Assembly (NCBI GenBank): GCA_036172245.1
Contig: JAYWIR010000003.1
Location: forward strand, 5,952,001 to 6,016,000
Length of the DNA: 64,000 bases
Direction of reading: 5' to 3'
Origin: Raillietiella orientalis
Taxonomy: Eukaryota
Made by a program: the position numbers and the translations under genes
The notes under the pieces: generated by a model
The model's input: only the letters and a program-made list of their open reading frames with translations
Told to the model about the DNA's origin: nothing
Databases searched by the model: none
Shown here: positions 21,816-32,043 of the stretch, piece after piece
Position numbering within the stretch: the first letter of the stretch is position 1
Layout: every line of letters starts with the position of its first letter

Positions 21816-22394
21816 TTTATATTACTTTGAATCATTCTCCACAATTATCGCGCTACATTACAAAATACACTAATGAAATACTGAAATGAATCTAGATGCC
21901 CACAAGCCAAAGCGAGTACCTAGAAAGGATATATAGAAAGCACATACATAATCTAAAGCATATTCCAAAATGCCATTCAAAAAACTATTCACACATTACA
22001 ACCAACAAGCTATGAAAATTGTGCTATGCAAAAAAAAAAAAAAAAAACGGAAGGCTTACCATAAAAACCAAGGAAAATAGTGCAAAGAATTATTAGCACA
22101 AACTATGGATAGAATGTTAACTAGTGTAATGGTTTATTCAATGAGCTTTCAAGTTACAAGTGAGACCCCATTGACAGGAATCCCAACAAACTTCAAGAGT
22201 GGGAAACACAATCAAACAAAACCATCTCTACTTACTACAGCTAAGGAGCTGTTGATGCTCCTACAAGTACCAGCAAACATAAAGTAGTGAAAAAATGAAA
22301 CACATGGCAAAGAGAGCAACCAACCCAAACACTGTGATCCAAACACATTTATAATATGGGTGTGGCAACATACAAAAATAGGTACTCTGTGATG

Positions 22395-22542
22395 ACATTA
22401 TTGCTTGTCAGAGGCGAGATCAACGTCAATACTGGCACCTGATGGCACTCTTGAGCACATTATTGCTTCATGAGATCAGCATCCTGAGTGGAATGTGGGG
22501 CACACAGTCTGAGATCAGAACAGCAGGATGTAGGTATCACAG
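22395..22542 (-). promoter_or_regulatory. Cluster of miRNA seed-match sites in the proximal musashi 3'UTR
   Basis: The + strand carries miRNA-sense words, so the mRNA carries their complements: TATCACAG 22535-22542 (miR-2); TGAGATCA 22510-22517 and 22471-22478, plus GAGATCA 22416-22422 (bantam); TGGAATGT 22489-22496 (miR-1); TTATTGCTT 22460-22468 and 22398-22406 (miR-137); ATGGCACT 22442-22449 (miR-263); AATACTG 22428-22434 (miR-8). Confidence 0.8.
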
Positions 22543-22544
22543 GC

Positions 22545-23567
22545 TCAAGGAGTATACAAGCCATAGACGCCCAGTCCTGTCAGATCAAGACCCTGGAAGG
22601 CAGACATGTCCAGATTGGCAAGGGCATATCCTGGAAATGGAGCAGGAGTGAGTGTGGCTGTGGGTAAAGGATAAGGAGAGTAACGATAACTAGCATAAGA
22701 GGGCAGCAATTTCCCCGGAACAGCTGCAGGTGGGTACAGGGCAGATGTAAGAGTGAGAGGTGTAGAGAAATGCATCTGAGCAGCTTGAGCAGCAATGGCA
22801 GCCTGGGCTTGCAGCTGCACATGCCCATAGCTGGCCAGCAGCGACATGCGCTTACTAAGCAGTGCTGCCGTTTGTTGCTGCACTTGTTCCTTGGGCAGGG
22901 CCTTCTTGCATTCCACTTTCTTGTTATTGATGGTGTGAAAATGGATGTCACATACACGGTCCACACTATCCTCAGCCACAAATGTCACAAAACCAAACCC
23001 TCGATGCCGTTTAGTTTGCTGATCCATCAACAGAACAGCTTCCTCCACCTGACCAAATTGGGCAAAATATGATTCCACCTCAGCTGTAGTGGTCTCCTGG
23101 CTCAAACCACCCACAAATATTTTTTTCGTTTTGGTAGTCGATTTCTTTCCTTTGGGAGTGGCATGCTTGGGGTCTATCTTCTTTCCATCCAAAATGTGAC
23201 TGCGATGGTTGAGCACATTCTCCACAGCACTGGCTTCTGTGAATGTGATGAAACCAAATCCACGGCTTCGCTAATGCACACAATTTAAAAACAATTTATG
23301 GGCTTCATTTTACAATGTATACTTATTTAGTCTTTATACCTGGGTCAAAGGGTCTTTCATGATGAGCACATCAGTAACAGTTCCAAACTGTCCAAAATAT
23401 TCTCTTAGTTTGTCAGATGTTGTCTGCCAGGATAAACCACCAACAAACAATTTGTTAAGTGCCAGATCTAATAAAGGAGATGATCGTTCTGATGATGACT
23501 GCGTCTGGCTGTCACTGCCTAGAAAGCTTCCATTTTCATTTCCAACACAGCTATGCTCAAAAGCCAT
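22545..23567 (-). CDS. msi: RNA-binding protein Musashi (two RRMs, Drosophila Msi-type); exons 23340-23567 and 22545-23270, 317 aa
   Basis: Spliced translation [48 protein letters not shown]...IDPKHATPK...KIFVGGLSQ...[16 protein letters not shown]...[12 protein letters not shown], with an Ala/Pro/Tyr-rich tail. A 69-nt GT..AG intron (23271-23339) joins the frames exactly. An acceptor-like TTATCCTAG lies 1 nt upstream of the ATG, so an upstream exon may exist. Confidence 0.95.
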
Positions 23568-27599: not shown

Positions 27600-30500
27600 T
27601 ACGTTCGCCGCCATTTCGGAGCGGCCGATGGCAGCCGTTTGCCCGATCCGCGTGTCTTCCCGTGCGCGCAATGCGTGCCGCTTGGTGGCACAGTGCTACC
27701 AAGTATACGGATGTTTTCGCACCGTTACGACAAGCGGAAGGTTCGTGGTGCGCTCATCGGTCCCGATCAGCGCTCCGTCCGGAAGCGACAAGCTCGACAG
27801 AATGCAGGATCCGGTCTGGCAGCGCCGCCGATGACGTGAAGCTTTCCAGATGGTGGGAACGTCTTCGACGGTGGGTCAGTTCCCTCGGGGCGAATCCGCG
27901 CAGCCCCTCCGTCGCCTCCTCGGATGCCACCGGGACGCCGCGTCCGCCCGCGTGCTGCTTGCAGCACGGCCGGCGGGGAAGGCCGCGAGACGCTCCTGTA
28001 TCCATGCGACTTCGCCCGGCGATCCCATGACGACAAGCAGTCCCGGCTCGCAGCTCGGCCGGGTGCGGGCAGCGCTTTCCCGATGGCTGTTGGGACGCGT
28101 CCTTCAGCACGTTGCTGCGTACTCTCCGTGCGGTTGTCTTGGGCAGCAACAAACGGGCTCCTGCAGCGGAACGAGGAGGCTGGAGATGAGAAAGAATGGA
28201 CCGATTCGTCATGCTGGGGGAAGGGGGAGGAAGGACGGACGGAGAAAGGGAAAGAGGTGGCGACCGAATTTGCCGCTCCCGCGAGAGGTGAGAAGGCGAT
28301 CCCGGAAGACTGCGGACAGACCTGTAGCGTTTCCTCGCCCCAGCCGCCTGAATGGCTGTTGCCGTGACTCATCGCAAAAAGTGGACGGAGGTCAACAAAT
28401 ACCTTCAGATGCTTGCTCCCCGCGAGAAAGACGACAGCAGCAGGAGCAGTCCTCGGAGCGAAGAAGGTCTCGCGCTGCACCCGGGAGGAGAAAAAGGAGG
28501 AAGGGAAGAGGAGGACCTCGGGATCGGACGGGAGGGAGCGCTCCCGTTTCGTTCCTGTCTGTGCCCGAACGGGCAGACACGCGGGCGCGCGTCCCGCCAC
28601 TCAGAGAAGGGAAGCGGGGATGTGGTCGCGTGCGCAGGGGGAGGAACGCAGCACAGATGCTCCTTCCGGTGAAGCGGAGGGAGGGACCGCCTGACACCGC
28701 CCCACGGCGAGGCGCCAGCTCTCGCGAGCGCCTCCGCAGCCGGCGTCCCTCCCTGCAGGAAAGGGGAGGCGCTCCCGGAGATGGGTCGGGGATGCATCGG
28801 GGAAGGCGGAAGACGGCAGCAGCTGTGCCGCCGCTCGTTTCCGCTTCCGCGAGTCCTTCCGGAGAGAACGAGGGTGGGCGGGACGGCAGAGAGAAGTTCC
28901 TTGGCACGCACGGCGGGGAACGCGCGCGGAAACGCCGTGGTGATCCCTGGCTCCGCACGCATCCTCCGCGCGGTGTGCCGCGCGTGACGCGACGCTCCGC
29001 ACTATGACGCATGCGCCGCCACGCGTTGCGCTCTCCCTCCGGCAGCTGTGCCTCCGATGTCGCACCCATTCGTGGCAGGAGATTCCCTTCGGACATACCA
29101 AGCCCGCAGCGCTCCGGCCGCCTCCTCCCTGGGGTGAGAGTGGAGAGAGGGAGGAGGGCATAGGCGACGTGAGCAGCGCCGGCGCAGCTCCCATCCTTCG
29201 AGAGATGAGGCTGGATGCGGAACGGAAGTTCCCCAGCTTTGGGAAAGGGAAGTGCGTGCGGCCGTGCCGGGAACGGCTTCTGTTGTTCCCGTTGCCACGG
29301 TTACCCGATAAGCCTTGGGGAGCATCCGGTCGGCTCGACCTCTCGTCCCTTCCCGACACTTGGGTGTGCCAAGGACATCCCGGAGCGCGCGGAGGAGGAA
29401 GGAGCGGGACCGATGAGGAGGGGAAGGAAAAAAACAGAAGTGCTTCCCGAGCTTCAAGGGAGGGCACGCTGCGTGCTGTGACACCGTTCACAAGGCAACC
29501 CCGCGACGGTCTCGCTCCCACCGGGGAGCAGCATGGAACTCTCAAGGGAGAAGAAAGGAACGGCAAGAAGTGGGCAGGGGGGGGACTTCCATGGTCTATC
29601 CGAGAAGAGGGAGGTCGGGGAAGAGGAAGGGAGCAACGCTCCTCCTCCTCTCCTCTTACCTTTCCGGGAGGACGGGATGGAGGCTCCCGTCCGGATGTGC
29701 GGGAGATCGTCCCCCACCCACCCGCTCCTCATCTCGGCGGCGGGACTTCGCAGGCAGCAAGACTCCCCTCCCTCGCTCCTTTGCGGTCCCAAAGGGCAGC
29801 AACTCTTCCCCGGGACTCTCCTTCGCATGACCCTCAGGAGTGGCTCGGGGAAGGGGGGGCGCCGCCGCCACTCGGAGCGCCGTTGCTGCGTGAGGTGAGA
29901 GCGGTCAAGGGGTGGCGTTCTGGGTGCAGTCCTCACTTTCTCGCGGCCTCCCTCGTCCTCCTCCCGCCCGCGCGCAGCTTCTGCTCTTCCCGTTGGCTCG
30001 GGAGCCGAGAGCAGGCGCGAGTCCCGGCGCAGCGATCTTTTCGCTCCTCTCCCTGGCAACTCGGTCTCCTCCTCAGGGAAGCCGCAGAGATCCTCCCTCC
30101 CCCCTGACGAGGGTCCAGCGGGTCCTCCTCCGGAGACTGCGCTCGCACGTCCTGCCTCGGGGAGGGGAGGAGGGGAGTCCTGTCTTCCCTTCGGCAACCG
30201 CTGCCGCCGCGGACGAGGAGGGGATGCGCTCGCGGCCCTCCCTGCGTGTGAGGAAGGGGTCCGTGGAAGAAAGAAAAGGGGATCCGAGACGTCTCCTCCT
30301 TCCCTCCAGCCCGGGACGAACCTGCGGGAACCCTCGGGGGGCTGCCTTCGAAAAGTGCGTCCCGCCTCCAGGAAGGGACGCTTCGGGAGAGGATTACACG
30401 GGAAGAGCGAAGCGAAGGAAGAGAGGGAGGTTAACGGACTCCAAGACCCCCTTGGTCCCCAGGGAAAGAGGGGACGGAAGAGGGAAGGAGGAGGGATGCT

Positions 30501-31950
30501 GGCCTCCCGAGCGAAGGCGGATGCGCGCGCATGCGCATGGCGTTCCAGTTCGTGGGAAGGGAAGCGAGCGGCGTGGATGCTGAAGGAAGCCACGCCTGGA
30601 GGAACCAGCATTGCCCTGGGAGGGGGGGGGGGGGAAGCGCCAACCTCTTCTCCTACTCCAGGGCAGCCGCTGCGCTAGCGGGGGACCATCCGCTGAAACC
30701 ACAGCAAGACGCAGAGCTCTCCTCCTGCTCTTCCTGCACACGCGCCCCAGAGGAACGAGAAATCCCGTCCTCCCGTCCCCGGAGGAGTGCTGAGAAAAGA
30801 CGGATCGACAGCCCCTTCTTTTCTTGCCCCCTTTAGTCCCTCTTGGACGGAGGGATCTCTGGATCACCTCACCCCACCTAACCGAAAGTGCCTCGAGTGG
30901 TACGAGGGAGGGGATTCCCATCCTCGCCGGGAGATCGCCGCGCCAAGGGAGGCTCGTGCTTTCCGGTGGACGATGCATTTCCAGAGACCTCCTCTCTCCT
31001 TCTTCAGCGACTTCCGGGTCGTCCCGTCTCAGGAAGGAGAGGAAGGGGAGGAAGCAGCGCCCTCTGGCTCTTCTTCCGGCCGGAGGCGCAGCCGGTGGAC
31101 CGGAAAGAGCGGAGGCGTCCTTTCCTCATCCCTAACTCGACGGATAGTTGAAGAGGATGGAGGGAGGCGGAAGAAATGGAAGTGGGTGCTCCCACTTCCA
31201 TTTCTTCCGCCCGAGCGAAGGAGAAAGACACCCCGGGTCGAAGGGTTCCTGGTTCTAACCAGAACTCCCCTTCCCTCTCTGAGCTTCCTGCTGCCGTCCT
31301 CTTCCATAGGAGTGCCCTATCTGGGGCTCTCCCACAGGAGGCGGGGGGACGGGGGAAGAAACGAACGGAAGAATAGGAAGGGAGAAACTTGGCTCGGCCT
31401 TCGCGAAGCAACGAACGCGAGCGGAGGTCACCCCTCGTTCCTCCCCGCCTTTCCCCGCCCCTTCCTCTCGGAATTCTCGAGCTGGGATCCAGGTCACCTA
31501 TCACTCCAGGGATTTATTTCTCTCTCTCTCTCCCTCTCGCGCTCTTCCTTCTCGCCGTGACAGAAAAACGCCCTGTCCCGTCAGGTCTCGCCCAGACGGC
31601 ATCCCCGCACCCGATCGAATCCGTGACCAGCTGCTGCAGGTTTCCGCGGCAACAGGGGGCGGGGGGGGGAGTGATGCTTCCGCGCGGAAGCAGCGGCGAA
31701 AGGATGCAGCTTCCGCCTGCTCTCGGGAAGGGATGCGAAGGGAGCAGCGTGCGTTTTCCTCCTCGAGTCGAAGAGCTTGGGAGATGTGCGCTCGAAAGGG
31801 TAGACTCCGGGAAGGACTGTCCTTCTCGGAGGAACCCTCCTCCGCCGACACTTTTCTGCCATTCCACGCATCCGTGTTTCGGCGGCGGTCTCCGCGAGCA
31901 GAGAGCCAGACCAAGTTCCTGCACCTCACGCTCCTTCTGACTACCTCGTG
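27600..31950 (+). mobile_element. Highly degenerate, GC-enriched NeSL-like retrotransposon (N-terminal zinc fingers to RT core)
   Basis: Ordered remnants: FPCAQC (27657), YPCDFARRSHDDKQ (~C2H2, 28000), PEE..LRK..STAP and DHLT (30780-30875), RVVP, KKWK (~NWR), WLGL...NASG.HP (31390-31435), PI....RQQG (31610-31655) and LSFSEE (~LAFADD, 31818). Confidence 0.55.
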
Positions 31951-32043
31951 ACCTAAAAGTGAAGCCAACAGCATTTCACCTTCGACAGCGGTCGGGTCAA
32001 ATCACCAGGGAAAAAAAAAACTGTCGCTTCTTTGATGAGGTCC

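Follow-up and report, generated by a model that had tools for sequence, protein, structure and literature searches.

A compact cluster of predicted microRNA target sites directly after the musashi stop codon of a crustacean-like arthropod

Nine exact seed matches to six microRNA (miRNA) families, including six 8mers, lie within the 150 nt that follow the stop codon of a musashi gene on the minus strand of the 64-kb stretch of DNA analyzed here (the window). The cluster is real and far beyond chance, and the sequence suggests that these first 150 nt of the musashi 3′ UTR are a compact combinatorial miRNA target cassette, a reading to which a probability of roughly 0.7 is assigned. The miR-137 and bantam sites, at least, appear about as likely to be functional, while the same claim for the full nine-site set is made with less confidence. 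The cassette is an unusually compact case of a known kind of element, the combinatorial miRNA target cluster, and it extends existing knowledge rather than changing it.

The predicted musashi 3′ UTR and its seed matches

Protein matches, C-terminus alignment, and Pfam agree that the target gene is a Musashi orthologue. Its 723-nt exon (23270-22548, minus strand) begins within RRM1, supplying that domain's second half, and continues through RRM2 to the C-terminal tail; the first half of RRM1 lies on an upstream exon across a 63-nt intron with a GT donor (CAG/GTATAA) and an AG acceptor (AG/CGAAGC at 23271/23270). The best protein matches are pancrustacean Musashi/Rbp6 proteins with about 50-60% identity, none of them close. 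In an alignment with 15 relatives, the end of the protein, ...GVYGLYTP, falls on the conserved Musashi C-terminus (...GMYTL, ...GMYV), so the TGA at 22547-22545 is the orthologous stop and the predicted 3′ UTR starts directly after it. The first AATAAA downstream is likely the poly(A) signal of a short UTR isoform, judging by its sequence, and beyond it the DNA turns U-rich in mRNA sense (GC 0.26-0.31). Since the stop is orthologous and this AATAAA lies 407 nt past it, the cassette would fall within any normal 3′ end, and the stretch at 22395-22544 presumably belongs to the musashi mRNA. About 90 nt past the first AATAAA, at 22031-22050, the mRNA sense has 20 consecutive T (20 A on the plus strand). 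The features are as follows, with offsets counted from the stop.

22548..23270, minus strand: last coding exon of the musashi/Rbp6-family gene (open reading frame and Pfam RRM_1)
22545..22547, minus strand: stop codon TGA (open reading frame and C-terminus alignment)
22535..22542, minus strand: K-box/miR-2-family 8mer CTGTGATA, +3 (2 nt between stop and site)
22510..22517, minus strand: bantam 8mer TGATCTCA, +28
22489..22496, minus strand: miR-1 8mer ACATTCCA, +49
22471..22478, minus strand: bantam 8mer TGATCTCA, +67, in unit A of a local duplication
22460..22468, minus strand: miR-137 site AAGCAATAA, +77, in unit A
22451..22457, minus strand: possible miR-87 7mer-A1 TGCTCAA, from by-eye comparison with PMC2834634 Table 1
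22442..22448, minus strand: miR-263a/183-type 7mer-m8 GTGCCAT, +97
22428..22434, minus strand: miR-8/200-type 7mer-m8 CAGTATT, +111
22416..22422, minus strand: bantam 7mer-m8 TGATCTC, +123, in unit B
22398..22406, minus strand: miR-137 site AAGCAATAA, +139, in unit B
22133..22138, minus strand: first AATAAA, 407 nt past the stop, predicted poly(A) signal
21877..21883, minus strand: second miR-8 7mer-m8, +662, included only in mRNAs that use the distal AATAAA
21810..21815, minus strand: second AATAAA, 730 nt past the stop (sequence)

Bantam is thus matched three times, miR-137 twice, and the K-box/miR-2, miR-1, miR-263, and miR-8 families once each, and both miR-137 sites are 8mers in the insect register as well as in the vertebrate register. 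A first-pass annotation made from the letters of the window had reported nine matches at 22395..22542, six of them 8-mers or longer and three of 7mer-m8 type, along with a second miR-8 site at 21877-21883; all were recovered at those places on the minus strand, with the same division into six 8mers and three 7mer-m8 sites. Taken in order, the nine sites start 25, 21, 18, 10, 20, 14, 12, and 16 nt apart, and all except the K-box at +3 lie between the conserved stop and the first AATAAA, 28-147 nt past the stop. The six families are known to be widespread in arthropods, and on the strength of that spread and of the crustacean-like protein matches the species presumably carries all six miRNAs. 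The seed words were checked against mature miR-8-3p, miR-2/13/11, bantam-3p, miR-1, miR-263, and miR-137 (PMC2834634 Table 1).

Shuffling the 150 nt 20,000 times with dinucleotide content preserved gave a mean of 0.26 matches for the six families and a maximum of 4, against the nine observed, so that a similar density was never reached. The six seed words are not unusually common in the window, occurring 56 times in 64 kb on both strands, which is about the uniform expectation, and no other 150-nt stretch in these 128 kb of both strands has more than two matches. The after-the-fact choice of families was allowed for with an outside set of 72 distinct insect miRNA seeds (nucleotides 2-8), hand-counted from PMC2834634 Table 1 and checked by eye against the cassette's 134 distinct 7-mers. 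Exactly six of the 72 have a 7mer-m8 match there, for which random seeds give P(≥6 of 72) = 2.9e-5 and P(≥9 sites) = 2.5e-8. The probability for families rises with the number of seeds admitted, reaching 6e-3 at 200 and 0.11 at 400. The one extra 7mer-A1 match, to miR-87, is at chance level, with about 0.6 expected for 72 seeds.

Part of the cluster is internally repeated. A 17-nt direct repeat, 88% identical and 62 nt apart, surrounds the two miR-137 sites, and a 12-nt repeat, 56 nt apart, surrounds two bantam sites; the 12-mer AAGCAATAATGT occurs repeated in the window, and pairwise alignment carries the similarity past the miR-137 site as AAGCAATAATGT..TCA.AGAGT.CC. Tandem Repeats Finder returned no rows for 22200-22700. 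The bantam+miR-137 unit was duplicated locally in tandem, and the cassette grew in part by this route. As one bantam and one miR-137 site come from the duplication, about seven of the nine matches are independent, and with the duplicates collapsed P(≥7 sites) is still 4.6e-6 for 72 seeds. The proposal that the cluster is a selected module is partly supported: the excess over chance holds, and part of the density reflects local duplication and not nine independent gains. A weaker third repeat downstream (family D3) may speculatively be a decayed third copy of the unit. Just past the cassette, ATCACAG, the miR-2 seed in sense, occurs twice on the mRNA strand (22329-22338 and 22384-22393) with a spacing of 55 nt; the upstream copy is within duplicated unit B, and the downstream copy, which also pairs imperfectly with the K-box region (14 nt, 79%), may be what remains of a third unit that has decayed.

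Conservation of the site families in musashi relatives

A Musashi alignment was scanned against metagenome records and yielded 80 loci, of which 74 had a stop downstream of the match and six ran off the contig. Before counting, 29 loci were excluded as duplicates (e.g., L003), as tails under about 120 nt, or as fragments with an intron-cut open reading frame. The remainder were grouped by eye, from the C-terminal motif and the extent of the alignment and after the hit table was already visible, into 12 arthropod-type loci (...DW..Y..YV or ...MYTL; L001, L002, L004, L005, L006, L007, L008, L010, L012, L013, L068, and L077), 19 other Musashi-like loci (mostly ...NGYH/Q), and 14 more distant RRM relatives. 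The arthropod-type loci share 42-77% pairwise protein identity, and eight of them hold the whole open reading frame in one frame, as in spliced transcripts. Three with tails of at most 210 nt (L001, L004, and L006) lack any 7mer-m8 match. Among the 12 arthropod-type 3′ regions, 15-mers are almost never shared, with L005/L008 as the only exception. Because alignable blocks are common to L002/L007/L077, to L005/L008, and to L010/L013, the 12 relatives are not phylogenetically independent and the P values that follow overstate the number of independent events; a fairer count is three to five separate lineages plus the window.

All 7-mers were ranked by how many 3′ regions contained each, with the first 1500 nt of every region considered, the window left out, and a first-order Markov model as the expectation. 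In the arthropod-type group, rank 1 falls to AGCAATA, the miR-137 site, present in 8/12 regions with 0.93 expected (P 6.5e-8, about 1e-3 when corrected for 16,384 words), and rank 2 to GATCTCA, the bantam 7mer-A1, present in 7/12 (P 1.7e-6, about 0.03 corrected). CAATAAT ranks third and GCAATAA fifth, showing that the conserved block reaches 3′ of the miR-137 seed match, and TGCCATA is also high. AGCAATA is again first in the other Musashi group, in 8/19 regions, so that the miR-137 seed match is conserved across lineages as the top 7-mer of both the 12 arthropod-type and the 19 other Musashi regions. It is followed in the latter group by GTCTTCC and TGTCTTC (miR-7) and, at rank 9, by ACATTCC (miR-1). 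The distant RRM relatives hold AGCAATA in 1/14 regions and show none of these ranking signals.

Further words stand high among the relatives. GTGCCAA and TGCCAAA, presumably miR-263b/96-type words, rank high in the arthropod-type group, the former being present in 5/12 regions, and CTATGCA, which is taken to be a miR-153-type word, is likewise present in 5/12. CTAGTCA, found in 6/12, is the complement of the 5′ end of miR-279/996 (PMC2834634 Table 1). CTAGTCA, CTATGCA, GTGCCAA, and the rest of these further top 7-mers of the relatives are absent from the first 750 nt of the UTR in the window. The miR-7-type words of the other Musashi group (TGTCTTC in 8/19, GTCTTCC in 5/19) are absent from the window as well.

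Each family was also compared with 1000 dinucleotide shuffles, counting 7mer-m8, 7mer-A1, or 8mer matches. In the arthropod-type regions, miR-137 (8/12) and bantam (7/12) were equaled by 0 of 1000 shuffles each, miR-263 (5/12) by 3 of 1000, and miR-8 (6/12) by 4 of 1000. The conservation of the four families across relatives, which had been offered as a check on the cassette, thus exceeds shuffles, and the check fails in this group for the other two: miR-1, at 3/12, is not enriched (315 of 1000 shuffles do as well), and the K-box, at 2/12, is not conserved (500 of 1000). The other Musashi group has miR-137 in 8/19 regions (0 of 1000 shuffles), miR-1 in 6/19 (19 of 1000), and the K-box in 6/19 (21 of 1000), and bantam, at 1/19, is not enriched there. 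When the six families are pooled, the 12 arthropod-type regions hold 39 sites, against 10.7 +/- 3.1 in shuffles (maximum 21 among 300) and 7 in antisense; the 19 other Musashi regions hold 36, against 14.6 +/- 3.8 and 13 in antisense; and the 14 distant RRM relatives hold 14, against 13.3 and 8 in antisense.

The sites are kept by family and not by place, as their order and position vary between lineages. Bantam-type matches in the relatives are mostly 7mer-A1 (GATCTCA after G or A), unlike the 8mer of the window. Three insect-like relatives (L002, L007, and L077) share a block of about 30 nt, AAGCAATAA-ttt-GCAATAA-c-CAGTATTA, which comprises miR-137 twice and a miR-8 8mer and lies at differing distances from the stop (L002:486-517, L007:144-172, L077:57-85). 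Further along, all three have a bantam site and a miR-1 8mer, and L002 and L077 also have a miR-263 8mer. In two related loci of the other Musashi group (L021:610-650 and L024:828-868), AAGCAATAA is followed by GCCATTCA and then by GTCTTCC, which puts a miR-137 and a miR-7 site no more than 25 nt apart. The relatives reach at most 3 sites in any 150 nt, against 9 in the window, so the density itself is not conserved, and it may in part be a by-product of the local duplication.

These results bear unequally on the alternatives to a combinatorial cassette. The strongest of them, still unlikely, holds that only the ancient miR-137 sites, perhaps with bantam, are functional, the other matches being fortuitous and the density a neutral by-product of recent duplication in a short UTR. 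It would account for the fact that only miR-137 and bantam words are prominent in the unbiased ranking (first and second), for the lack of miR-1 and K-box enrichment in the arthropod-type set, for the 17-nt and 12-nt repeats that mark a duplicated bantam+miR-137 unit, and for the ceiling of 3 sites per 150 nt in relatives. It does not account for the enrichment of miR-263 and miR-8, which so few shuffles match, nor for the three insect-like UTRs that each carry miR-137, miR-8, and miR-1 8mers, with miR-263 in two of them, and the seven matches left after collapsing the duplicates would still have to arise at P = 4.6e-6.

It is far less probable that the whole cluster is a chance pattern created by picking miRNAs after the fact. 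The families were indeed chosen after the sequence was read, and six or more would be matched with a probability of 0.11 if 400 seeds were allowed; yet the six are deeply conserved and abundant families that fall within the outside set of 72 seeds (P 2.9e-5), nothing comparable occurs in 128 kb of both strands, and the relatives, analyzed apart from the window, have as their top two conserved 7-mers exactly the words that the cassette repeats. An equally improbable proposal is that the conserved words are read by a factor other than an miRNA, for instance an RNA-binding protein for AAGCAAUAAU, or that the element is an miRNA sponge or decay trigger, the last of which needs extended pairing to the miRNA 3′ half besides the seed. 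The extension of the conserved block 3′ of the miR-137 seed (CAATAAT third, GCAATAA fifth) and the repetition of the 12-mer AAGCAATAATGT in the window would fit such a factor, but the vertebrate miR-137 register accounts for AGCAATAA, Musashi-binding elements are at chance (4 vs 3.4, 438 of 1000 shuffles), and the human site has been validated by seed mutation (PMC4494958). The combinatorial miRNA cassette accordingly remains the preferred reading.

Predicted action and relation to known miRNA targets

Under the cassette reading, Argonaute loaded with miR-137, bantam, miR-263, miR-8, and probably miR-1 would bind the predicted seed matches and recruit deadenylation and translational-repression machinery, and Musashi output would fall. 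In flies, these miRNAs are expressed in different tissues, namely differentiating neurons, proliferating cells, sense organs, epithelia, and muscle, so each would likely clear or dampen musashi mRNA in its own cell type. By analogy with fly biology, growth, muscle, sensory, and neural inputs, as proposed in the first-pass annotation, may be integrated on musashi. In cells with two of the miRNAs, neighboring sites at a spacing of 10-25 nt would also act synergistically, most clearly at the two bantam+miR-137 pairs; two neighboring pairs whose starts are only 10 and 12 nt apart may be mutually exclusive or too close for two Argonautes at once. A review (PMC3499661) describes synergy between sites about 10-40 nt apart and a loss of effect for sites closer to the stop than about 15 nt. 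With its start at +3, the K-box falls inside this ribosome shadow and is therefore probably inert, as had been suspected. The K-box element is defined as a conserved and repressive cTGTGATa; the cassette has the motif, 2 nt beyond the stop, but the relatives show no conservation of it.

Of the six families, only miR-137 has a link to Musashi that was found in print. Human miR-137 represses MSI1 through its 3′ UTR, as seen in a luciferase assay with a seed mutant (PMC4494958), and conservation of a miR-137 site in Musashi has been reported for vertebrates and for the genus Drosophila (PMC6573790), and also for fly msi and Rbp6 (PMC3899048); the remark of the earlier annotation that miR-137 repression of vertebrate Msi1 is on record is borne out by the first two. 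Fly msi is also listed among the TargetScanFly predictions for miR-137 (PMC12338917). The cassette resembles this axis in having the same target gene family and the same seed match in a predicted 3′ UTR. It differs from the human and fly cases in that the host is a crustacean-like arthropod and the predicted site is duplicated, with a bantam site next to each copy and no more than 150 nt between the stop and either of them. For bantam, miR-8, miR-263, and miR-1 acting on arthropod musashi/Rbp6, a search of the open literature, with prediction tables and subscription papers outside its scope, found no report.

The convergence of different miRNAs on the 3′ UTR of one regulator has a counterpart in Drosophila nerfin-1 and prospero, on whose 3′ UTRs several miRNAs are described as converging and acting cooperatively in a neuroblast miRNA module (PMC12064045, which cites Kuzin et al. 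2007 for nerfin-1); that paper does not mention musashi, and the miRNA set partly differs from that of the musashi cassette. The nerfin-1 and prospero sites are spread over long UTRs, whereas musashi has nine sites in 150 nt of what is probably a short UTR.

Two older systems are also comparable. Lai and Posakony reportedly described clusters of K-box, Brd-box, and GY-box motifs in the 3′ UTRs of Enhancer of split and Bearded genes; their K-box paper is cited by PMC10251896. These clusters, like the cassette, pack short boxes complementary to miRNA seeds densely into a 3′ UTR, the K-box CTGTGAT among them, but they belong to Notch-target genes and answer mainly to the miR-2, miR-4/79, and miR-7 families, and the single K-box of the musashi cassette, unlike theirs, is in the ribosome shadow and not conserved. 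Bantam sites in the hid 3′ UTR are said to have been described by Brennecke et al. in 2003. There, too, several bantam seed matches fall in one 3′ UTR; the hid sites are those of one miRNA over a long UTR, whereas bantam is one of six families in the musashi cassette.

A wider evolutionary reading is offered tentatively, as a possibility somewhat short of even: the cassette may be a compacted form of an ancestral multi-miRNA control program of Musashi. Control by miR-137 would date from early bilaterians, the arthropod lineage would have gained bantam, miR-8, and miR-263, and miR-1 would be common to the other Musashi group, with families being kept while positions turn over; UTR shortening and the tandem duplication of bantam+miR-137 would have squeezed the sites into 150 nt. 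If this were true, no smaller natural 'six-input' miRNA sensor would exist on a stem-cell regulator, Musashi being a conserved regulator of stem and progenitor cells. If the cassette reading itself is right, miR-137, bantam, miR-8, and miR-263 have jointly controlled musashi across arthropod-type lineages that diverged widely, and the 150-nt cassette would be a natural minimal element for studying how neighboring sites of different miRNAs cooperate or act tissue by tissue.

Fold, other elements, and neighborhood

The cassette folds no more stably than its shuffles (z = 0.39; 129 of 200 shuffles fold as well), and Rfam yielded no matches in the whole 64-kb window and no miRNA family there. With no excess structure and no Rfam match, the element looks like a set of linear sites and not a hairpin, and a structured RNA or miRNA precursor is not supported. 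Autoregulation through Musashi-binding elements was also considered and rejected, as the 4 elements counted in 750 nt are at the chance level given above.

Pfam gave no match for any of eight long open reading frames around the msi exons, which reach about 6 kb away toward lower coordinates (downstream) and about 3.6 kb away upstream, so no overlapping recognizable gene explains the cassette. Upstream of the musashi exons in minus-strand terms, at 28001-32000, a 4-kb block of 63-66% G+C stands out from surroundings of 34-50% G+C. Every reading frame in it has long open stretches, and it may be a GC-rich promoter or 5′ region.
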